This document shows, one piece after another, positions 2,435 through 25,022 of a stretch of 27,159 bases of DNA. The stretch lies in IMG/VR virus record IMGVR_UViG_3300037424_000800, positions 1-27,159 of that record. One strand, given 5' to 3'. Each line of letters opens with the position of its first letter. Position 1 is the first letter of the stretch. This stretch comes from a virus (Duplodnaviria; Caudoviricetes). The notes below the pieces were generated by a model. That model made no database searches. It worked only from the letters and a program-made list of their open reading frames with translations, and had not been told where the DNA came from. The translations under genes and the position numbers were made by a program.

Positions 2435-2856
2435 AGCAGGTTTCCTTTCATTTTGCTGATTATCTCGTCCGCGACCTGGGCGGGAGTTTGCTTTGCTGTT
2501 TTTCCATTGAGCTGCACCAGCGCCCACCCGTTTGCATATAACCACCGCGCCTTGATCTCGTCGTATGCCCACATTTTAGCGGCGCCATGCCATCCCTTTG
2601 ACCCGTCCACCTCAACGGCGATCAGTTGCCCGTCCATTTGGAAAGCTACGTCGATATATTGTTCCATCCCCGGTTCGGTATGGATGGGGTGTTCGTAGGC
2701 GATCCATTCCGGGTTGAGTAGGGTAACGGCGAGGCGGGCTTTTGCCTCTGCTTTGGTTGGGCGCTGACGGCGTTCTTGTGCTGCGAAAACGGCGCGGCGC
2801 TTTCCCGCTGTCCTCGCTGTTTCGCTGGTAAACGTTCCAGATGATCTAGCCATCAT
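2431..2856 (-). CDS. DUF559/Vsr-like PD-(D/E)XK endonuclease
   Basis: PTKAE...YIDVAF...LIAVEVDG..WH...DEIKARWLYANGW pattern. Confidence 0.7.
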   Translation of the reverse strand: MMARSSGTFTSETARTAGKRRAVFAAQERRQRPTKAEAKARLAVTLLNPEWIAYEHPIHTEPGMEQYIDVAFQMDGQLIAVEVDGSKGWHGAAKMWAYDEIKARWLYANGWALVQLNGKTAKQTPAQVADEIISKMKGNLL

Positions 2857-3776: not shown

Positions 3777-3815
3777 ATAATAACCGATAACTTCTCACTT
3801 GTCAATAGGCAATTT
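3777..3815 (-). promoter_or_regulatory. shared-box sigma70 promoter P1
   Basis: AAATTGCCTA-TTGACA-17 bp-TATTAT. Confidence 0.9.
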
Positions 3816-6712: not shown

Positions 6713-6751
6713 ATAATAACCGATAATTCACTGCTTGTCAATAGGCAATTT
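6713..6751 (-). promoter_or_regulatory. shared-box sigma70 promoter P2
   Basis: AAATTGCCTA-TTGACA-17 bp-TATTAT. Confidence 0.9.
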
Positions 6752-6761
6752 TATAAACGGG

Positions 6762-6802
6762 CAAACAAAAACCGGGCGTGGGGGGGGCACGTCCGGTTTT
6801 TG
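6762..6802 (-). terminator. intrinsic terminator, possibly bidirectional
   Basis: CAAAAACCGGACGTG-C7 loop-CACGCCCGGTTTTTG on the minus strand, immediately upstream of P2. Confidence 0.8.
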
Positions 6803-6831
6803 CCTTCACACAATAAGGAGCGAAGTGAACC
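6762..6831 (-). ncRNA. candidate anti-SD small RNA 1 (~70 nt)
   Basis: Own promoter (6838-6866), no ORF, UUCAC/GUGAA stem with loop UUCGCUCCUUAUUGU, ends in the terminator. Confidence 0.55.
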
Positions 6832-6837
6832 GATCAA

Positions 6838-6866
6838 AGTATAGAACCAACGCTGTCAAAAGTCAA
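6838..6866 (-). promoter_or_regulatory. sigma70 promoter for candidate sRNA 1
   Basis: TTGACT-17 bp-TATACT; the -35 overlaps the stop codon of 6863..7663. Confidence 0.7.
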
Positions 6867-7663
6867 GGATGTTTATTTATGCACCCAACGCACAGCGGTT
6901 GAAATGCCAGTTGTCCACGCTTCATCATGCCTACCGCCTCCGGTGTACTCTGCCCCCACTTCCACCAGAAGCCGCGCTCGTTGACGCACTGCTCTAATCC
7001 ATCCAACCATGCACCCCAATGCGGAAACCAGAACGCAGCCTCTTCGCGCTCCTCTTTGTTCTGCATCGTGCCACACATACACTCGCCAGAACGGTGTAGC
7101 AAAGCTGAAACGGGGTTGACTTCCAATTTCTCGTCATGGATGAAGTCCATGCAGTCGCGCTTTGTCCATTCGTTGATGATGTTCACCCACACGTTAGGGC
7201 CATCCGCCTTGACGGGTTCCCTCATCGTCATCATGCGGTTCTGGCTTTCCTGCCTGCGCCCGCCGTTGATAAGCAAGATATTGCGTCCGCGCTTCCCCTG
7301 GCGTATCGTTGCCAGCCCCGCGCGCAACCGCTGGCGCTTCAAGATGTGGTAAGCATAGGTGTGCGCCCTCTCTCCTTTGCCAAAGAAACCCTTGCGCAAC
7401 ACGTAATCCTCATACGCGCTCCCCGCGGTTCGCTCGATGTACGGCAATCCTGTACTCTCAACGTATCGGCGCACGTAATCCAGCGTTTCGGGTATCCCCG
7501 TCCCGGTGTGAACGTGCATTACATAATCAACCTTCACGCCCAGGCGCAAGGCTACGTGTAACGCGGTTAGGCTGTCTGTGCCCCCGCTGAACATAGCAAC
7601 GGCGGCATAAGGCTTATACTCCATCCGCGCCTGCTTGATAATCTCTCGCGATTGCTCAAACAC
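6863..7663 (-). CDS. PAPS reductase-family (PP-loop) protein
   Basis: FSGGTDS PP-loop, GGRRQES..R, WTKRD, SGECMCG. Confidence 0.85.
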   Translation of the reverse strand: MFEQSREIIKQARMEYKPYAAVAMFSGGTDSLTALHVALRLGVKVDYVMHVHTGTGIPETLDYVRRYVESTGLPYIERTAGSAYEDYVLRKGFFGKGERAHTYAYHILKRQRLRAGLATIRQGKRGRNILLINGGRRQESQNRMMTMREPVKADGPNVWVNIINEWTKRDCMDFIHDEKLEVNPVSALLHRSGECMCGTMQNKEEREEAAFWFPHWGAWLDGLEQCVNERGFWWKWGQSTPEAVGMMKRGQLAFQPLCVGCINKHP

Positions 7664-9600: not shown

Positions 9601-9836
9601 ACTATTATCCCCTCTTTAAGCTTGAGTTTAGCATATTGATAGAGTTCTTCTGCTACCCGGAGGTTCCTTTCCATCGTTTCCCACTCGGCGGCTGTGTAGT
9701 CCTTCTTGCTTTCTCGTAGATCAAAGCAGTCCGGTGGCATTGGTTCATATCCCTTATCGACGGCTAAAAGAACACGGGCGAAGTAATCCCAAAGGTCGAT
9801 CAAAGGTAACTTGCGCTTACGGTTGAAGATGCTCAT
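9597..9836 (-). CDS. hypothetical protein
   Basis: 79 aa, coupled on both sides. Confidence 0.7.
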   Translation of the reverse strand: MSIFNRKRKLPLIDLWDYFARVLLAVDKGYEPMPPDCFDLRESKKDYTAAEWETMERNLRVAEELYQYAKLKLKEGIIV

Positions 9837-10696
9837 ATTGGCAACTCCATGTATGCCCTGATAAACTCAGCCGCCAGGGGAGCCACTATCGCGTTCCCGT
9901 AGGCGCGCAGTCGTCCCACTCTGGCGGTAGCCCCATAAGCCAGCGGGAAAAGGCCGGGTTGAGTTGGTCTGGATTTTCCGTCCCGGCAGGGGAGCCATTC
10001 AAGGTCAGACCATACACCGCCTGTTCGTTCAGTGGTCTGCTGTTGCGCTCCATCGTATCCTCGGACGCTCTCCCGTCCCTCCAGTCCCGCGCTGATGGTG
10101 TTCCCCAACCCGTGAGCTTCGTTGCTCCCGACAAGTTCAGCATTTTCTTTTCGTGATCCCCTTTGCTGTACTGGTAATCTCCTCTCGCTGCTTTCGGAGT
10201 GGGCCACGAAGTAAAGTCTTTGCCTGATGTGCGGCGCTTGCGCGCTCGCAGCGCATATATCGACCGCTGCGACGGTGTAACCCGCACCTTCCAGGTCACT
10301 GTAAACAAGATCGAGCCACGCAAGACCATCCTTTGACGCAACTTGTTCACCAAAGACGACTGCAGGCCGGCACTCTCTGATGAGCCTGAACCATTCAGGC
10401 CAGAGATGCCGAGGGTCAGCTGTACCGCCGCGCTTTCCTGCGGCTGAGAAGGGCTGGCATGGGCAACTTCCCGTCCATACTTCCCGTTCTTCGGGCCAGC
10501 CAGCGAGACGGAGTGCATAACTCCAGACCCCGATGCCTGCGAAGAAGTGAGCTTGTTTGTGTCCTGTGAGATCATGCGGTTGTACCTCTCTGATGTCGCG
10601 CTGGTCAACGTAGCCGGGTGCGATGTGCCCTGCGTCAATGAGGTTGCGTAGCCACTGCGCGGGGTAAGCTTCGATTTCGTTGTAGTAGTTGATCAT
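9833..10696 (-). CDS. DNA (cytosine-5)-methyltransferase, main (alpha-like) polypeptide
   Basis: FFAGIG (motif I), GSCPCQPFS (IV), GEQV (VI), [11 protein letters not shown] (VIII), [10 protein letters not shown] (X). Confidence 0.9.
9886..10638 (-). CDS. overlapping alternative-frame C5-MTase beta-like polypeptide (start uncertain)
   Basis: 250-codon open frame nested in the MTase, with WPTP/WGTP repeats and [16 protein letters not shown] (motif IX-like). Confidence 0.65.
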
Positions 10697-10938
10697 ATCG
10701 GTAACCTCCCCTGGCGCTCATGTACGCGGATGGCATCACCGATCTCAACGACCGTATCGGCATACAGCTTCGCTTTACGAATGCGCCAGTATTTCGGCTC
10801 GGCGTCAGCTACGAACTCTCGGTTCTCGTAGGGAACCCGCTTGATCCTGGCGATGTCAGCGCGGAACTCTTCGTCCTTGCCGGTCACGGTGCATAGGGCT
10901 GTGTACCCGTCGCCCTCAATGATCTTTACGTCTATCAT
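10693..10938 (-). CDS. small hypothetical protein, possible HARP-like domain
   Basis: 81 aa, RBS AAGGAG; weak resemblance to the second SNF2 N-terminal repeat. Confidence 0.7.
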   Translation of the reverse strand: MIDVKIIEGDGYTALCTVTGKDEEFRADIARIKRVPYENREFVADAEPKYWRIRKAKLYADTVVEIGDAIRVHERQGRLPI

Positions 10939-11135
10939 TCTGGTTCGCTCCTTTTGGTTTTAGTGTGGTAAACGCCGCATTCCACGCAGCGGGAGTATAC
11001 GGTTAAAGCGTCCACGGCGGCCAGGGTGTGGTCAGTCTCTTTTCCACAGCCCATGCAGAACTGCTTCTCGGTCTTGATTATGCACGCGTAGGCGGCGCGC
11101 ACCATCTCAACGAACTGAATAACCTCGGCGCTCAT
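10935..11135 (-). CDS. small Zn-ribbon protein
   Basis: CMGC...CVEC; start placed at the ATGA overlap with the dnaB stop. Confidence 0.65.
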   Translation of the reverse strand: MSAEVIQFVEMVRAAYACIIKTEKQFCMGCGKETDHTLAAVDALTVYSRCVECGVYHTKTKRSEPE

Positions 11136-12496: not shown

Positions 12497-12524
12497 GGGT
12501 CATCCTTTCATTTATCTGGTAGTG

Positions 12525-13418
12525 CTATTTTACTATGGTTTCTGCGTGAAACACGGGCGGTAGTGCGGCTACGACTGCCTCGGGTGAGCGCACCCTGTCA
12601 TTCTCGCTGAACCCACCCCGCTTGAACACGTCTAGCATCCCCTGAACGTTAGACGGGTTATACCCGCGCCCTAACCATTCATGCACCACCGCGCGCCACT
12701 GGTCAACCTTGTGGCGAACTTCGCCAACCGCAGCGACGACCTCCGGACGCCACGCGATGGGCATGTGATAGCGGGTTTCTGACCGGAACGCTTTGACCGC
12801 CGGGTGGCTCAGCAGCGGGTCGCGCTTTTTCCCTTTAGTGTTGAGCGGGACAATAACCTTGACCCCTTGCCCTTGATCGCCCTCCTTCCCTAACGCATCA
12901 AAGAAATCCTGTTCGGTTTGTTCAGTAGAGGGGGCGGGATGTTCATCCCGCGAACTCATGTTTTTATTTATATTCATGTATGATGATTTGGGTGACATTT
13001 TTGCACGTTTCTTGCTTAAAATGTCACCCCCTCCCTCGCTTTCTTTGCTTAAAATGTCACCCCCACCCATGGGGGGTGACATTTTGTCACCCCCCATAAT
13101 AACGGGCGATGATGTATTTACATCAATTGTTTTGGGTTGGAATTTTGGTTTCACTGGGATCTGGTTCACGTTGATTTTATAAACGTTTGTTCCCCACTGG
13201 CTAAAACCCTGATGTACCATGATTTGTTTCTGAACCAGGGAGGCAGTGATACGTTGCACCTGGCGTTCTTCATAGTCTGTTTTCCATGCCACGTAACCAA
13301 TGGACGGGTAAACTCCCTCACCGTCATCATTGGCGTGGTCGGCATACGCAAGTAGGACGTACTTCTCTGGTCTTGGCAGCGCCGATTTCCATACCCTTGA
13401 CATCAATTCAACGCTCAT
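12525..13418 (-). CDS. phage replication initiator (N-terminal winged HTH)
   Basis: MSVELMSRVW...KYVLLAYADHANDDG..YPSI...ERQVQR pattern; lies upstream of dnaB; contains iterons; AAGGAG 8 nt before ATG 13418. Confidence 0.85.
   Translation of the reverse strand: MSVELMSRVWKSALPRPEKYVLLAYADHANDDGEGVYPSIGYVAWKTDYEERQVQRITASLVQKQIMVHQGFSQWGTNVYKINVNQIPVKPKFQPKTIDVNTSSPVIMGGDKMSPPMGGGDILSKESEGGGDILSKKRAKMSPKSSYMNINKNMSSRDEHPAPSTEQTEQDFFDALGKEGDQGQGVKVIVPLNTKGKKRDPLLSHPAVKAFRSETRYHMPIAWRPEVVAAVGEVRHKVDQWRAVVHEWLGRGYNPSNVQGMLDVFKRGGFSENDRVRSPEAVVAALPPVFHAETIVK
12961..13097. repeat. putative replication origin (iterons plus AT-rich tract)
   Basis: Five TGTCACCC-core copies in both orientations, including a 20-bp direct repeat TTGCTTAAAATGTCACCCCC (13012-13031, 13045-13064) and a palindrome (13069-13097); AT-rich tract at 12961-12990. 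Confidence 0.85.
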
Positions 13419-13441
13419 TTGGCTCACTCCTTATCGTTAAA

Positions 13442-13552
13442 AAATCCAGACCTTATTCCTGGCGGCAACGGCGCTCACGGCAGCAACGGCGGTTCTGCGC
13501 TTGGCGGGCGCGTACCGGTGCGCCGTGGCAACCAGGGGTAAAATCTGGATTT
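13442..13552 (-). ncRNA. structured 5' leader of the initiator gene (candidate)
   Basis: Long imperfect stem AAATCCAGATTTTA/TAAGGTCTGGATTT continuing CCTGG/CCAGG and ACGGCGC/GCGCCGT, ending just before the RBS. Confidence 0.55.
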
Positions 13553-13620
13553 CGCCGTTGACTTTTATTCCGCCCGTAGCGCCGGAGTTGCCAGCCCCGG
13601 CGGGCTTTGTTGTTACCGGT

Positions 13621-13629
13621 ATTGTACCA
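13621..13629 (-). promoter_or_regulatory. extended -10 promoter for the replication operon
   Basis: TGgTACAAT about 200 nt upstream of the initiator start. Confidence 0.5.
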
Positions 13630-14822: not shown

Positions 14823-14861
14823 ATAATAATTGATTTCTCCTTGTTTGTCAATAGGCAATTT
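14823..14861 (-). promoter_or_regulatory. shared-box sigma70 promoter P3
   Basis: AAATTGCCTA-TTGACA-17 bp-TATTAT. Confidence 0.9.
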
Positions 14862-16018: not shown

Positions 16019-16072
16019 GGTCTAGTTCCTTTCTGCCGGGGTTATTGCCAGCCCCGGCGCTAGTGGTGGGTT

Positions 16073-16528: not shown

Positions 16529-16567
16529 ATAGTAAACGATAACCGCCTATTTGTCAATAGGCAATTT
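16529..16567 (-). promoter_or_regulatory. shared-box sigma70 promoter P4
   Basis: AAATTGCCTA-TTGACA-17 bp-TACTAT. Confidence 0.9.
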
Positions 16568-18193: not shown

Positions 18194-18232
18194 ATAATAA
18201 ACGATAACCGCCTATTTGTCAATAGGCAATTT
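18194..18232 (-). promoter_or_regulatory. shared-box sigma70 promoter P5
   Basis: AAATTGCCTA-TTGACA-17 bp-TATTAT. Confidence 0.9.
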
Positions 18233-18303: not shown

Positions 18304-18768
18304 CTAGAGTTGTTCGAGATTCTCGCAGTGACCGTAGAACCAGCGCCATAATTTGATGCGGCGTTCCCGGTCAGAGCGTTCGACGTATCCTTCGATGCTC
18401 TCACCCTTGCGCCGGGGCAATTCCTTTGTGTCAAGCCGGTCGGGGTGGTACTGTTCCAGGTAGCAGCCGGTCACGTTCGGAATTCGCAACGTGATGCACC
18501 CGGAGTCGTCCTGCTCGATGCAGGTTTCCCCGTTTTCGTCGCGCTTGGTATGACCGCTGATGGCGACCACGTAAATGTGGGGTTGACCGGCGATGATCTT
18601 GGCTTTGATGATCGCTTTGTGGACGTACTGGGCGTAGTCCAGGTGGCTGGGCTGGATTTCGACGCCGAGATCCTTGCTCAGGTATCCGGCGATGTTTTCC
18701 AGTTCCTTGTCGCGCCCGGTGATGGTATGGGCGTCGATGAAATAGGTATTGCTGGTCTTGGTTGTCAT
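18304..18768 (-). CDS. hypothetical protein
   Basis: 154 aa, TGAAAGGAAACTAGACCATG, downstream of P6. Confidence 0.8.
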   Translation of the reverse strand: MTTKTSNTYFIDAHTITGRDKELENIAGYLSKDLGVEIQPSHLDYAQYVHKAIIKAKIIAGQPHIYVVAISGHTKRDENGETCIEQDDSGCITLRIPNVTGCYLEQYHPDRLDTKELPRRKGESIEGYVERSDRERRIKLWRWFYGHCENLEQL

Positions 18769-18819
18769 GGTCTAGTTTCCTTTCATTTAGTCAGTGGTTA
18801 GGCTTATTCTTACACTCCA

Positions 18820-18858
18820 ATAATAACCGATATTCCCGTGTTTGTCAACAGGCAATTT
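18820..18858 (-). promoter_or_regulatory. shared-box sigma70 promoter P6
   Basis: AAATTGCCTG-TTGACA-17 bp-TATTAT. Confidence 0.9.
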
Positions 18859-18976: not shown

Positions 18977-19739
18977 GTTTTGCCCAGTAGTGAGCGTCGC
19001 TGGTAAGGAACCGCTGCCATGCGCCTTCGCTCGGCGCCCATCTAAAACCGTGCTCTTTCAAAGCGTCACGTACCGCCTTATCCGGTTTGCCGGGGAAGAA
19101 TATCTGCAGCCGGTTCTCGTCAGCGTTCTTGACGATGCGCACCCCGTTGACCTCGGTTTCCCTATTCTGCCGGGTGGCTGCCCGTTCCAGCGTCTTTAGG
19201 CGCTCTTTCAGGCGGGTGATGTTGCCCCGGTTGTTCGCCAGGGCGTAATCTGGAAATCCCAGGCGACCAACGAAATCGGGTTCATAGAGCTTGCCAACAT
19301 GGGTTTCGGTGAAGCCCATCGTTAGCAGCGCGGCCCGGTTGGATGGAGTATCGCCGTTACGTATGATCTTGTTGGTGGCTTTCATCTTCTCCTGGTCAGC
19401 TTCCAGCTTGGCAATCCGCGCCTTGATCTTCTCGATGGCGTCCGGGTCATCGCTGGAAATCGCCGCGTTGCTTTCAGCGGCTGCGGCGCGGCTGGCGGCG
19501 TTGGACGCTTGCTCAGCGAGCTCCGCTGATTTGCGAAAACCGGACTCGATCTTGGCGCGGTAGCGCCGGTCACGCTTCTCGCTGTGATGACCAACCAGGA
19601 TCGGTTGCCCAAACGGGATCACGTCTGCCATATCGTGCGCACGCTTGCGCATAGTGACTGACTGATCAAAGAGGTTATCGGCACGGTTCTTGAGTCGTTC
19701 TATGCGTTGCTGTCTTTTTTGTTCGTAATCACTTTTCAT
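18954..19739 (-). CDS. DUF3560 domain protein
   Basis: IPFGQPILVGHHSEKRDRRYR, ISSDDPDAIEK, RLQIFFPGKPD...GFRWAPS; GGAGG RBS before ATG 19739. Confidence 0.85.
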   Translation of the reverse strand: MKSDYEQKRQQRIERLKNRADNLFDQSVTMRKRAHDMADVIPFGQPILVGHHSEKRDRRYRAKIESGFRKSAELAEQASNAASRAAAAESNAAISSDDPDAIEKIKARIAKLEADQEKMKATNKIIRNGDTPSNRAALLTMGFTETHVGKLYEPDFVGRLGFPDYALANNRGNITRLKERLKTLERAATRQNRETEVNGVRIVKNADENRLQIFFPGKPDKAVRDALKEHGFRWAPSEGAWQRFLTSDAHYWAKRIVETML

Positions 19740-19950
19740 TGGGTTCCTCCTGAGTTGTTTCTTCCTCGAACATATTAGCAATGGTATCTCGATCATTTGA
19801 GGCGTGGATGGTTTTCCAATCCCCGAACACCTGGGACTGGCGTTGCACTTCATAAACCACACTGAGGTTTTCAAATACAACGGCGATCATGCGGTGAGCT
19901 GCGCCGTACCTGTCTTTGCGCTGGTACATCAAGATCGTTTTTTTGTTCAT
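19729..19950 (-). CDS. hypothetical protein
   Basis: 73 aa, coupled to neighbours. Confidence 0.7.
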   Translation of the reverse strand: MNKKTILMYQRKDRYGAAHRMIAVVFENLSVVYEVQRQSQVFGDWKTIHASNDRDTIANMFEEETTQEEPNEK

Positions 19951-20831
19951 TGGTCATGCTCCCTTTCGTGTAATGGGCTATATGCCCAGGTTAGCTCGTA
20001 CCGGTACGCCTCACTGTCCCGGTCATCGTTGGGCGGCAGCGGGTCAACGGTGAAGACCCAGGTGTGCGGGACGGCGTTGACGGGATCGGATCGGTCGGTG
20101 TGGACGCAGAGTGTTCCGAACGGCATGGTTGCCCACATGAGCGAGAATGGGCGGTTGTAGCTGGCGTAGACGTGGCGGGCTCGGCGCACCTGGGTAGCTC
20201 GATCTTTGTCTTCCTCGCTGATCGCCTTCATCAACTCATGGTGCCACGCGCCGGCTGCATTATGGCGCAGTTTCGATAACCGGTCATACCCGCACAGTTC
20301 GGCGAAGCGATAAAACCGGTCGGAGTCGTCGCACCATTTAACGGGGCGGGTGGGGTACGCCGTGCTTAGGTCAACGATGAATGGCTTATAGGATTTCGGG
20401 TCTAACGCCAGGGTGATCAAGTCATTGATTTCCCACCCGGCGCGGTTTACGCCGCGCACTGCCTGTTCCAGCGCCAGTAAAACGTCCCGGTTGATCCGGC
20501 GGTGTTCGATCTCCTGCCCGTACACAGGCGCCAGCTTGCGTACCAGCCAGGGGCGACCATCCGGGGTCATGACCTCGGTCCAGTTCTTAGGGAAGAAGGG
20601 CTTATCAGCGAACTCCCGCAAGAGGTCGATTTCCTTAGTAGGATACAGAGCGTCGGCGTTGGGGTATGGGCGGGCTATTAGGGGTTTCCAGACGAATCCG
20701 TCGGGGGTCAGGAAAGCGCCGCCGGTGTGGACGCCATCGGGCAACCCGTCTGCGCGTGTCCCGGTCAGCTTAGTGCAGCCGTCGAATGGCGGTTGCCCGT
20801 ACATCTCGATGGGGAAGGATAGCTTAATCAT
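19947..20831 (-). CDS. hypothetical protein, possibly kinase-like fold
   Basis: 294 aa; VWK, KE, INDL and IVDLS occur in protein-kinase-like order (tentative). Confidence 0.6.
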   Translation of the reverse strand: MIKLSFPIEMYGQPPFDGCTKLTGTRADGLPDGVHTGGAFLTPDGFVWKPLIARPYPNADALYPTKEIDLLREFADKPFFPKNWTEVMTPDGRPWLVRKLAPVYGQEIEHRRINRDVLLALEQAVRGVNRAGWEINDLITLALDPKSYKPFIVDLSTAYPTRPVKWCDDSDRFYRFAELCGYDRLSKLRHNAAGAWHHELMKAISEEDKDRATQVRRARHVYASYNRPFSLMWATMPFGTLCVHTDRSDPVNAVPHTWVFTVDPLPPNDDRDSEAYRYELTWAYSPLHEREHDQ

Positions 20832-21015: not shown

Positions 21016-21037
21016 GGTCGTTTCCTTTCGTTTGTTG

Positions 21038-21187
21038 GATTAAGTGTTCACTGAGAGCCAGAACTCGGCGGTTCTGCTTCGCATGGTTAACGAAGTGGGG
21101 CGGGACCGGGGCTTTTGCCTATGTATCCCCGACCTTGTATCCGGTGCTTGGGTAAGACCCTCTTGTGCTCTCGGTCAACACTCAATC
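21038..21187 (-). ncRNA. multi-branched structured RNA in a ~320-nt intergenic gap (candidate)
   Basis: 21-bp imperfect closing stem (21038-21058 with 21167-21187) enclosing hairpins CAGAAC/GTTCTG, CTTCG/CGAAG, ACCGG/CCGGT and GGGT/ACCC. Confidence 0.6.
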
Positions 21188-21335
21188 TGGTAAGGTTCTA
21201 AATCCGACCCGGCTCTACCGCCGTCTTCCTTGCTTATCCCCCTGGGGGGAGCCTCCACGATTATCCTTCGGCACGCCGTGTTGTGATCGCTTTGGTTTCG
21301 GACCTACCCCCATGATAAGGGCGGGGATCGGTTTG

Positions 21336-21524
21336 TTAATTTACGAAGTAATCTGTATGCCCGTATAGGTGGCGATAAAACTGGTTTATGATCATTCCTG
21401 ATTTCTCTAGCTCGTTTATGGTTTTGAAGTTGAGCCAGAAAGGCCATATTACGATGCGGTTTCCTGGTCCGACGTATCGGGCTTTTAGAACCTTGCAAAT
21501 AGCCTGTTGCCTATTCTTGGTCAT
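21336..21524 (-). CDS. hypothetical protein, first gene of the leftward arm
   Basis: 62 aa, GAAAGGAA RBS, downstream of P7. Confidence 0.65.
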   Translation of the reverse strand: MTKNRQQAICKVLKARYVGPGNRIVIWPFWLNFKTINELEKSGMIINQFYRHLYGHTDYFVN

Positions 21525-21545: not shown

Positions 21546-21584
21546 ATTTTATACCAAAACTGCTTGCTTGTCAATAGGCAATTT
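21546..21584 (-). promoter_or_regulatory. shared-box sigma70 promoter P7
   Basis: AAATTGCCTA-TTGACA-17 bp-TAAAAT. Confidence 0.9.
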
Positions 21585-21621: not shown

Positions 21622-21646
21622 GATATGAGAGGCGGAGCACAGCTTA

Positions 21647-22933
21647 ATGGCAAAGATCAGTGATCTGATTCCCGATTCAAAAAACGCCAACCGCGGCACG
21701 CGGCGCGGCTTGAAGGCGCTGGACACTAGCCTGCGGCAATACAAAATTGGGCGCGGCGTTCTGGTTGATAAGCACGGCAAGATTATCGCCGGGAATAAGA
21801 CGGTGGAGAGGATAGCCGATATCGCACCAGATACGGAGGTCGTTCTAGTGCCGACCACGGGTGACCAGCTTGTAGTTACTCAGCGCATGGACTTGGACCT
21901 GGATACCGACCCAGAGGCGCGGGCGCTGGCTACCTACGATAACCGCGTCGGGCAGCTTGACCTTGATTGGGATGTGGAAGCGTTGAATGATGTAGGGCTG
22001 GATGTGCTGGGCGATCTGTGGACGGATAAGGAGCTGGCAGAGATTGGCTTCAACGTCGAGGAGCCGCCGGAAGACCCAGGCGCGCAGATTGACCGCGCGG
22101 AGGAACTGCGTGAGAAGTGGGGCGTGGAGCCGGGACAGTTGTGGCGGTTGGGCGAGCACCGGCTGATATGCGGGGATTGCACGGATAGGGCGGTGGTGGA
22201 GAGGGTGATGCAGGGAGAGAAGGCGAAACTTACCGTGACTTCTCCGCCTTACGCAGTTGGCAAGGAATACGAAGAGGGTGTGAGCTTTGATGACCACTTG
22301 GCGTTATTGCGTGGTTTTACAGATCGGACAATTGAGATAACTATTCCGGGTGGTTTTATTTTTACGAACTTTGGTGAGATAGCGGCGCTATCTCACGCCT
22401 CGCCACTTACGGGAAGCAAGCGCCAATGTATTTATCTTATCTCTCGTGATTACTGGCAGATATACCACGAGGAGCGCGGCTGTGATTTATATGCCATGCG
22501 AATTTGGTATAAACCATTCAATCGCCTACAGCAACCATTTTGGAGTTATCACACCAGCATCCCCCACCACCAGGAATGGGAACATATCTGGACTTGGCGC
22601 GTGCCGGGCGGGGACGGTGACCGTGTTTGCGATTGGGATATTTCAGTGCATGCAATTTGGGACACGCGCAACGAGGCAACTGAAGATCATCCACTTACCC
22701 GCCATGTAGCCGCCTTTCCGGTATGCCTACCGGAAAGGGCTATAAAGGCGCACTCAATGAAGGGTGAAGTTGTATATGAACCATTTAGCGGTTCCGGCAC
22801 GACCCTGATCGCCTGCGAGCGGCTGGGGCGCAAGTGTCGCGCAATCGAGATCAGCCCCGCATACTGCGCCGTGGCGATACAACGATGGGCGGATATGATC
22901 GGGCAAGAGCCGGTGCTATTGGAGGCGGGATGA
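21647..22933 (+). CDS. ParB-like N-terminus plus beta-class amino-methyltransferase (SPPY, N4-mC likely)
   Basis: IIAGNKTVE/DNRV N-domain, HRLICGDC, TSPPY, HVAAFP, EPFSGSGTT. Confidence 0.9.
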   Translation: MAKISDLIPDSKNANRGTRRGLKALDTSLRQYKIGRGVLVDKHGKIIAGNKTVERIADIAPDTEVVLVPTTGDQLVVTQRMDLDLDTDPEARALATYDNRVGQLDLDWDVEALNDVGLDVLGDLWTDKELAEIGFNVEEPPEDPGAQIDRAEELREKWGVEPGQLWRLGEHRLICGDCTDRAVVERVMQGEKAKLTVTSPPYAVGKEYEEGVSFDDHLALLRGFTDRTIEITIPGGFIFTNFGEIAALSHASPLTGSKRQCIYLISRDYWQIYHEERGCDLYAMRIWYKPFNRLQQPFWSYHTSIPHHQEWEHIWTWRVPGGDGDRVCDWDISVHAIWDTRNEATEDHPLTRHVAAFPVCLPERAIKAHSMKGEVVYEPFSGSGTTLIACERLGRKCRAIEISPAYCAVAIQRWADMIGQEPVLLEAG

Positions 22934-23472: not shown

Positions 23473-23790
23473 ATGACCGGCAGTAATACAGCGGGGAACA
23501 CCGCAACAGGTAAGCCATTTGCCAAAGGCGACCCGCGCATCAATCGCAAGGGACGCCCAAAGTCCTTTGACGCGCTGCGCTCCCTCGCCCAGCAGATCGC
23601 CCACGAAGAAGCGCAGTCCGGCGGGCAGCCAGTCGTCATCGGCGGGCACAAGGTGACGGTGGCTGAGGCGATCCTGCGCAAGTGGGCGATGAGTCAGAAT
23701 GCGCAGTTACAGCGGGCGTTTATCGAGGTGCAGTTCACGGTGAGCGGGAATATCTTCGAGCCCTACTTTGTTGTCAAGGCGGAGTATTGA
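23473..23790 (+). CDS. DUF5681-like protein (small-terminase-associated N-terminus), possibly truncated
   Basis: KPFAKGDPRINRKGRPK motif; TGATG overlap with the next gene. Confidence 0.65.
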   Translation: MTGSNTAGNTATGKPFAKGDPRINRKGRPKSFDALRSLAQQIAHEEAQSGGQPVVIGGHKVTVAEAILRKWAMSQNAQLQRAFIEVQFTVSGNIFEPYFVVKAEY

Positions 23791-25022
23791 TGGTAAAGAT
23801 TAAAGATCTGACTCAGGATGTAAAGAACGCCAACCGCGGCACGCGGCGCGGCTTGAATGCGCTGGACGCTAGCCTGAGGCAGTACAAGATTGGGCGCGGC
23901 GTTCTGGCTGATAAGCATGGCAATATTATTGCCGGGAATAAAACGGTGGAACGCATTGCTGACCTTGCGCCAGATACTGAGATTATTATGGTTCCGACTA
24001 CGGGTGACCAGCTTGTAGTTACTCAGCGCATGGACTTGGACCTGGATACCGACCCAGAGGCGCGGGCGCTGGCTACCTACGATAACAGGGTAGGGCAGCT
24101 TGACCTCGATTGGGATGTGGAGGCGTTGAATGATGTAGGGCTGGATGTGCTGGGCGATCTGTGGACGGACAAGGAACTAGCGGAGATCGGCTTCAATGTC
24201 GAGGAGCCTCCCGAAGACCCAGGCGCGCAGATTGACCGCGCGGAGGAACTGCGCGAGAAGTGGGGCGTGGTCAGCGGTCAACTCTGGAAGTTGGGCGAGC
24301 ACCGGCTGATTTGCGGGGACTGCACGGACAAGGTGGTGGTGGAGAAGGTGATGGGAGGAAACCTCCTGCGACTTATCTGGACTGATCCGCCTTATGGCGT
24401 TAAGTATGGCGAGAAGATGGAAGATGCGAACCCGATGGGTTATCGGGTTCGCCGTATCGAAAACGATAATTTATCTGATGGCGACTTAGAGAAGATGATT
24501 AGATCGGCTTACACGAATTTGGCAGATCACGCGCAATCAGGTGCGGCATTATACGCAGCGTGCCCGGCGGGTACGCTGCTCCCAACTGCGATTGCGGCTT
24601 TTGCTGGTAGTGGTTTTGTGTTCCACTGGGGTTTGGTTTGGGTGAAAGATCAACTAGTATTAGGGCGTGGCGATTATCACTTTAGGCACGAGAATATTTT
24701 ATATGGTTGGAAGCACGATGGGGCACACCTTTGGGCGAGTGACAGAAAACAAGACAGCATCTTTGAGATACCACGCCCGAAATCAAGCGAAGAACACCCG
24801 ACCATGAAGCCCGTAGCATTAGTTGAAGCGATGGTCAAGAATTCCAGCAATCATAACGATATCGTGGCCGACCCCTTCCTCGGCTCCGGCACGACCCTGA
24901 TCGCCTGCGAGCGGCTGGGGCGCAAGTGCCGGGCAATCGAAATATCTCCTGGGTATGTGGCTGTGGCACTTCAGAGATATTACGATATGACAGAGATTAT
25001 GCCTATGTTGGTGGATTTATGA
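23790..25022 (+). CDS. ParB-like N-terminus plus beta-class amino-methyltransferase (DPPY, N6-mA likely)
   Basis: Start moved to ATG 23790 (GGAG RBS; aligns with the paralog start); TDPPY, HPTMKP, DPFLGSGTT. Confidence 0.9.
   Translation: MVKIKDLTQDVKNANRGTRRGLNALDASLRQYKIGRGVLADKHGNIIAGNKTVERIADLAPDTEIIMVPTTGDQLVVTQRMDLDLDTDPEARALATYDNRVGQLDLDWDVEALNDVGLDVLGDLWTDKELAEIGFNVEEPPEDPGAQIDRAEELREKWGVVSGQLWKLGEHRLICGDCTDKVVVEKVMGGNLLRLIWTDPPYGVKYGEKMEDANPMGYRVRRIENDNLSDGDLEKMIRSAYTNLADHAQSGAALYAACPAGTLLPTAIAAFAGSGFVFHWGLVWVKDQLVLGRGDYHFRHENILYGWKHDGAHLWASDRKQDSIFEIPRPKSSEEHPTMKPVALVEAMVKNSSNHNDIVADPFLGSGTTLIACERLGRKCRAIEISPGYVAVALQRYYDMTEIMPMLVDL

Follow-up and report, generated by a model that had tools for sequence, protein, structure and literature searches.

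Gene Content and Presumed Host

The window analyzed here is the whole record of a sediment phage, 27,159 bases long. Its minus strand holds the early and replication region, with genes for an SNF2 helicase, a protein with a PAPS-reductase domain, a cytosine methylase, DnaB and an O-like replication initiator, and its plus strand holds the start of the methylases and the large terminase. Three minus-strand features frame the small unit at issue, which we call s2.

12525..13418, minus strand: replication initiator, ATG at 13418, 297 aa, PHROG replication initiation O-like, Pfam HTH_36
6863..7663, minus strand: ORF with a PAPS-reductase domain, final gene of the presumed initiator operon
6713..6750, minus strand: one of seven copies of a repeated promoter, next after s2, at which the following transcription unit begins

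Ten ORFs run from 13418 to 6863, beginning with the initiator and ending with the PAPS-reductase gene, with one 28-nt gap and the rest overlapping. This block is likely a single operon, presumably cotranscribed, with s2 at its 3′ end; several of its coding sequences contain terminator-like hairpins.

The nearest relatives of the initiator are distant, sharing at most about 45–51% identity over partial coverage, and the nearest DnaB relative shares 56%. In a search that covered 401 genomes of the class Anaerolineae alone, the class that holds a Leptolinea assembly, the initiator subfamily is present in 9. This weakly points to Anaerolineae (Chloroflexota) as the likely host, and an ESM Atlas lookup indicated no host. 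Hfq did not score above the cut-off in any of five incomplete Anaerolineae-class genomes, the host itself being presumed.

The s2 Unit: Promoter-Like Site, Predicted Hairpin and Terminator

The unit is composed of the following elements.

6838..6866, minus strand: sigma70-type promoter-like site TTGACT-17-TATACT, 10/12 consensus match
6760..6832, minus strand: predicted RNA s2, about 70 nt, ORF-free, its start placed from the -10 element
6826..6832, minus strand: 5′ tail CGGUUCA, able to pair with the spacer GAACC/GAGCC that follows AAGGAG in four of the five such ribosome-binding sites (RBSs) of the window
6804..6825, minus strand: predicted hairpin with a 6-bp stem and a 10-nt loop, UCCUUAUUGU (6819-6810), from fold prediction
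6810..6824, minus strand: 15-nt seed complementary to the initiator RBS
6762..6803, minus strand: intrinsic-terminator-like hairpin with a C7 loop (6787-6781) and a U-tract, from sequence and fold

The initial annotation had described a TTGACT-17-TATACT promoter sequence, an ORF-less unit of about 70 nt and a terminator with a C7 loop, and all of these are present as claimed. The -35 hexamer TTGACT occupies 6866-6861 and the -10 hexamer TATACT 6843-6838, with a gap of 17 nt. The -35 element overlaps the TGA stop codon (6865-6863) of the PAPS-reductase-like ORF, and because it contains that codon, s2 is also the 3′ UTR of this gene. A promoter matching at least 10/12 positions would arise by chance with a frequency per 60 nt of 0.2% under an order-2 Markov model and 0.8% at 45% GC. 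The match between the tail and the spacer is to be read as a pattern that was picked after the s2 sequence was seen.

The stem of the first hairpin is formed by CUUCGC and GUGAAG. The loop had earlier been drawn in a 15-nt register, which is absent from all structures up to 2.5 kcal above the minimum; the predicted loop comprises the 10 nt of UCCUUAUUGU. The 78-nt unit folds with a z score of -3.55, and none of 200 shuffles is equally stable, the signal coming chiefly from the terminator. An A-tract opposite the U-tract gives this terminator a bidirectional look. A reading of the element on the plus strand, as the RBS of a small gene, was considered and rejected: the sole start codon is a GTG placed 4 bases after AAGGAG, versus 6–9 in this phage, and the site lies directly behind a terminator-like hairpin and has no promoter match.

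Predicted Pairing of s2 with the Initiator RBS

The best predicted target of s2 is the ribosome-binding site of the replication initiator.

13423..13437, minus strand: initiator RBS region, 15 bp with s2, 3 G:U

A pairing over 13 positions with 13436-13424 had been proposed; the place is right and the helix is longer, with 15 contiguous pairs, three of them G:U, between 6824-6810 and 13437-13423. The exposed 10-nt loop matches the initiator site in full (10/10 positions, one G:U). The 15-bp helix has an energy of -19.9, and opening of the stem is predicted to cost 2.7 kcal/mol. The core of the seed is a generic anti-Shine–Dalgarno (anti-SD) word, so specificity is limited to about nine flanking positions, three being G:U.

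For comparison, we used the RBSs of 187 fetched loci, with genes called by a simple script. The initial annotation had held that its proposal would fall if the initiator RBS ranked no better than random AAGGAG sites. Among 278 foreign AAGGAG sites, one is better than the initiator by duplex energy, and none attains 15 contiguous pairs. When the opening costs of both RNAs are included, the initiator scores -13.4 and ranks first of the 45 window sites, above all 278 foreign sites, the best of which scores -11.7. The initiator RBS therefore outranks random AAGGAG sites, and the proposal is not refuted on this count.

Several null models were applied to the same match. With the flanks of s2 shuffled and CUCCUU held fixed, 63/3000 shuffles reached an equal helix energy at one or more of 40 window sites and 14/3000 did so at the initiator; CUCCUU itself would occur by chance within 28 nt at 0.55%. 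Comparison of the phage's own RBSs with foreign sets of equal size gave P values of 0.018 (best single site) and 0.013 (three best sites). A cofold measure, which permits bulged and scattered pairing, is more lenient: shuffled RNAs do as well with any window site in 283/1000 cases and with the initiator in 63/1000. On the target side, cofolding gives P values of 0.050 (top 1) and 0.034 (top 3). The top-3 sum is exceeded in 2 or more of the 71 foreign loci, and of 2288 foreign phage sites no more than 3 do as well as the initiator. By most of these estimates a match of this quality has a chance of 1–5%, and under the one lenient null 28%; the match is modestly to clearly more than chance, depending on the null.

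Other Predicted s2 Targets

Two further sites follow the initiator.

10944..10953, minus strand: RBS of the 81-aa gene 10693-10938, 10 Watson–Crick pairs with s2, of generic strength
19729..19980, minus strand: 73-aa gene (19950) with its RBS, ranked second among cofold targets (-14.6, bulged pairing)

Perfect pairing with 10953-10944 had also been noted. The position and the pairs are as described, but the match is not specific, since 7/278 foreign sites do equally well. From the exposed loop, UCCUU alone pairs with this site, and three RBSs of an unrelated phage (L124) bind s2 as well as gene 10938 does (-11.3 to -13.3). The accessibility-corrected energy falls from -13.4 at the initiator to -9.1 at the next site, and the other AAGGAG sites pair contiguously with s2 over only 6 bases. 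By these calculations, the initiator is the best predicted target of s2 and probably not its sole one, with 19950 and 10938 next.

Proposed Feedback on the Initiator Operon

The reading that we favor, though we give it slightly less than an even chance, is that the 3′ end of the replication block yields an RNA of about 70 nt whose predicted loop pairs with the initiator RBS and lowers translation of the initiator. Either a promoter of its own would drive the RNA, or processing would release it from the 3′ UTR of the operon. First contact with the initiator message would be made through the exposed 10-nt loop, after which the weak stem, with its low predicted opening cost, would open to allow the 15-bp helix to cover the Shine–Dalgarno sequence. 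At this site, such a helix would outcompete the 6-bp pairing of CUCCUU in 16S rRNA. Because s2 terminates the operon that begins with its target, the outcome would be delayed negative feedback on replication initiation. Its reach would be weaker on other genes of the AAGGAG class, such as 19950 and 10938. A sister RNA, s1 (described below), would act likewise on the GAAAGGA class, to which DnaB belongs. The finding that no Hfq exceeded the cut-off in the five incomplete candidate-host genomes would fit a long, chaperone-free pairing and proves nothing.

The unit had been likened to antisense copy-number control encoded 6.6 kb from its target. The distance is as stated, and the likeness is less apt: since s2 closes the apparent operon that contains the initiator, operon-end feedback is the closer parallel to its predicted action.

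A Sister Unit and Two Classes of RBS

When all loci were scanned blind for promoter-to-terminator units free of ORFs, 56 were returned; eight, which overlap the gene start of the opposite strand, were dropped. An anti-SD word is present in both of the two window units, versus 7 of 46 units elsewhere; in other phages, many anti-SD matches are accounted for by RBSs of opposite-strand genes. The second window unit, s1, has the same build as s2, and its seed is complementary to three RBSs of the phage itself.

18874..18961, minus strand: sister unit s1, with hairpin, seed 18924-18911 and terminator; extended -10 element TGcTATAAT covering the stop codon of the DUF3560 gene
18777..18790, minus strand: RBS of gene 18304-18768, 14 Watson–Crick pairs with s1
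12503..12514, minus strand: DnaB RBS region, 12 Watson–Crick pairs with s1
2442..2453, minus strand: RBS of gene 2183-2434, 12 Watson–Crick pairs with s1

None of 229 foreign AAAGGA sites attains 12 Watson–Crick pairs with s1. Mean binding is -11.4 for the 13 AAAGGA(A/U) sites of the window versus -5.9 for 107 foreign ones, and the top-3 P value by cofolding is 0.00025. On helix energy alone s1 is unexceptional, with 1175/3000 shuffles as good and P values of 0.11–0.19 against foreign sets.

The spacers that follow the Shine–Dalgarno words divide along the same line. GARCC occurs at four of the five AAGGAG sites of the window and at none of the 13 AAAGGA(A/U) sites; GACC occurs at 9 of the 13 AAAGGA(A/U) sites and at none of the five AAGGAG sites. 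Both are rare in foreign sites (13/279 and 9/232, respectively). The window RBSs thus appear to form two classes whose spacers mirror the 5′ ends of s2 and s1, an assignment based on patterns picked after the RNAs were seen. When the tail of s2 was replaced at random, 8/300 replacements matched or exceeded the natural class binding; random replacement of the s1 tail had no effect, with 171/300 as good.

These data raise the possibility, which we consider doubtful but worth stating, of a two-key RNA code. Here, the early genes would fall into two RBS classes, each read by one operon-end RNA through an anti-SD seed and a 5′ tail. The RNA s2 would be keyed to the initiator, and s1 to promoter-proximal genes and the DnaB helicase, so that RNA feedback on replication would operate without a chaperone.

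The same two classes can be read in another way, in which s2 and s1 together damp both groups of early-gene RBSs, for example, in an early-to-late switch or a quiet state, and the initiator is an ordinary client. The mirroring of the seeds and tails of s2 and s1 by the RBS classes speaks for such silencing of whole groups, as do the good binding of all 13 class members by s1 and the binding of 19950 and 10938 by s2. The initiator (-13.4) is separated from the next s2 site (-9.1) by a large energy gap, and the other AAGGAG sites pair over only 6 contiguous bases; this argues against the initiator being one client among many, and we consider group silencing unlikely.

Homologue Searches and Units of Similar Build

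No relative of s2 emerged from the searches that were made. Rfam gave no match to s2 at E values up to 1 and a sub-threshold match on the terminator of s1 only. Searches of non-coding pieces by blastn yielded no s2 homologue in sets of 35, 187 and 29, in a 15-genome set or in a 21-locus set; 10 virus records searched whole likewise held none, nor did 10 records searched for s1. Against 50,697 phage records only chance matches to s2 were seen, and the s2 pattern occurs in none of the 401 Anaerolineae-class genomes. Searches with the promoter pattern gave 3 and 4 loci that have the promoter core alone in common. In one DNA sequencing run, possibly the one from which the record derives, two contigs identical to the window overlap by 21 bases inside s2; the run holds no variant copy, and none bridges the unit by 31 bases.

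Similarity to the initiator or DnaB led to phages with units of the same build and of unrelated sequence. The loci L123 and L124 represent one phage and are identical here; two tandem promoter–hairpin–terminator units with anti-SD words lie upstream of the likely initiator (L124, 8625-8830, plus strand), which was assigned by its position before DnaB. The second of these units forms 14, 14 and 11 Watson–Crick pairs with RBSs of its own phage and 9 with its own DnaB site (P top 3 = 0.008). The relatives of L124 are its own near-identical records and one distant match. The L122 unit also favors its own sites (P 0.004), but it is ambiguous, with a -35 element that overlaps an opposite-strand RBS. 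In four of six informative look-alike units, a preference for own RBSs is absent (P 0.21, 0.63, 0.79 and 0.995). The L071 family was left out of this test, as its sister loci matched each other, and a candidate in L041 was set aside as ambiguous, its other strand reading as an RBS and ATG. The likeness of s1 to the first L124 unit is the best among 55 units (27/5000 shuffles); we claim neither homology nor covariation, given that the L124 unit is weak on its own DnaB site (-5.3).

Short promoter-to-terminator units with a common AACTGAAT word near the start were also observed at L040 8224-8330, L255 1108, L221 12224 and L045 8930 (all plus strand). The L040 unit has an anti-SD hairpin loop and closes the early region. 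A conserved RNA-like unit with two anti-SD stretches lies near the initiator gene at L071 3374, L078 7371 and L081 4634 (plus strand).

The lack of an s2 homologue fits a plainer account of the locus, in which the unit is nothing more than the 3′ UTR of the PAPS-reductase operon with its intrinsic terminator, and its promoter hexamers and anti-SD match arose by chance. That the -35 hexamer is partly stop codon, that the fold signal comes mostly from the terminator, and that the lenient null allows 28% are all in keeping with this account. It needs several coincidences, however: a promoter in this position (0.2–0.8%), CUCCUU within 28 nt (0.55%) and the extension of complementarity at the initiator (0.5–2%). 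A second window unit of the same build, with matches of its own, also argues against it, and we rate an ordinary terminator as rather improbable. As far as the sequence can tell, s2 is a genuine and well-constructed candidate whose statistical support is moderate; the sister unit strengthens the case, and the want of relatives weakens it.

Possible Action in Cis or on the Host

The seed and its target lie on one strand at opposite ends of one presumed operon, an arrangement that would also allow the 3′ end of the full operon mRNA to fold back on its own initiator RBS and so confine initiator synthesis to the time of transcription. Against such action in cis stand the promoter-like site exactly at the start of s2, the 6.6 kb of translated RNA between seed and target, and the s1 matches, two of the best three of which fall in separate transcription units at a distance of kilobases. 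We judge it very unlikely.

Nucleases that read UCCUU exist. The CUCCUU core of s2 is the core of the 16S tail end in one Anaerolineae-class genome, AAGGAG is carried by 26 of 141 candidate-host RBSs, and 2/141 pair with s2 at -14.8 or better, equalling gene 10938. It is nonetheless highly improbable that s2 serves to damp host AAGGAG mRNAs, or as a mimic of the 16S tail or a decoy for a UCCUU-reading host nuclease or ribosomal protein, as the phage's own sites match best: none of the 141 RBSs of this presumed host attains the helix energy of the initiator, and no more than 3/2288 foreign phage sites equal it.

Relation to Known RNA Regulators

The closest parallels to the proposed feedback on the initiator are OppZ and CarZ of Vibrio cholerae, which are sRNAs cut by RNase E from operon 3′ UTRs that pair with their own transcript and block translation initiation as negative feedback, with Hfq among the keywords (PMC7398697). 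Like these, s2 is placed where the presumed operon of its predicted target ends and is complementary to translation starts within it (15 bp at the initiator, 10 bp at 10938). OppZ and CarZ are host RNAs whose action is shown experimentally, whereas s2 is encoded by a phage, follows a promoter-like site of its own and has the initiator as a predicted target. Among phage RNAs, c4 of P1 and P7 is an antisense RNA with loop sequences that pair near an RBS and block translation of the antirepressor (PMC12197685). The complementary sequence of s2 is likewise placed in a predicted loop, of 10 nt, for pairing near a phage RBS. Unlike c4, s2 has no Rfam match, has a simpler build of two hairpins and has an O-like initiator as its predicted target; none of the 46 window proteins is an antirepressor by Pfam.

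The Cuckoo, CcsR and ar14 RNAs of Alphaproteobacteria have two to four hairpins, each with the anti-SD loop CCUCCUCCC (PMC4615179). They share with s2 an anti-SD word in a hairpin loop. In contrast to them, s2 has a single loop, UCCUUAUUGU, lacks CCUCCUCCC, has no Rfam match and extends its complementarity into the flanks of the target. The lambda RNA LPR1/PreS is a phage sRNA that affects DNA replication by base pairing with host genes and raises dnaN translation (bioRxiv 10.1101/2024.10.31.621285). Like it, s2 is a putative phage sRNA that would act on replication by base pairing, but the predicted effect of s2 is repression of a gene of the phage, whereas PreS enhances a host gene.

CopA and the Inc RNAs are antisense RNAs of plasmid copy control, which are made from the opposite strand of the rep message, are fully complementary to it and make first contact through loops. 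RNA control of initiator translation, with loop contact first, is also what is predicted for s2. It differs from these RNAs in lying on the same strand as its target, 6.6 kb downstream, and in having an imperfect complementarity of 15 bp with 3 G:U. Judged by its sequence and predicted build, s2 belongs to neither the c4 nor the Cuckoo family, nor to the cis antisense copy-control RNAs. No report of a phage sRNA that represses its own initiator was found in the literature searched, most subscription journals being outside its coverage. If the proposal is true, a phage curbs its own replication initiator through a small RNA encoded where the initiator operon ends, which is a design shown in Vibrio host operons; if s1 acts likewise, the phage addresses groups of genes through the flanks of their RBSs, likely in a lineage where Hfq was not found.

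Other Features of the Window

One sigma70-type promoter is repeated seven times on the minus strand of the phage, at 3777-3812, 6713-6748, 14823-14858, 16529-16564, 18194-18229, 18820-18855 and 21546-21581. The constant element AATTGCCT lies upstream of all seven copies, and most have a TTATCG spacer element; this promoter is absent from both s1 and s2. A core of 13–17 bases of this promoter is also present in L085, L121, L192, L194 and G012. The terminator loop of s1, UGGUCU, is complementary to an AGACCA motif directly 5′ of the start codons of several promoter-proximal genes.

The leader of the initiator (13438-13629, minus strand) has an extended -10 element near 13629, a long irregular hairpin with arms at 13552-13520 and 13474-13442, and a U-tract just 5′ of the RBS. 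A similarly stable fold (z -4.2 to -6.8) lies 5′ of the initiator in 5 of 23 loci, namely, the window, L039, L041, L066 and L085. The leader could be an attenuator or a nuclease site for initiator control. One GC-rich hairpin-forming word occurs at about 13590-13605 and 16046-16069, upstream of the initiator leader and of gene 16018. Inside the initiator gene, a perfect inverted repeat at about 13054-13095 (minus strand), accompanied by repeated GGTGACA-type words, is a possible origin.

An ORF-poor stretch of 320 bases at 21016-21340 (minus strand) has a multi-hairpin fold (z -2.4) and no Rfam match; one of its hairpins matches G007 at 21/23 positions. Overlapping ORFs in different frames at 9833-10696 and 9886-10638 (minus strand) both match DNA methyltransferases, a cytosine methylase in two nested frames, and both ORFs are also found in L117, L045, L081 and L141. 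Finally, the methylase genes at 21644-21943 and 23787-24086 (plus strand) are 87% identical over their first 300 bases and differ in their catalytic parts.
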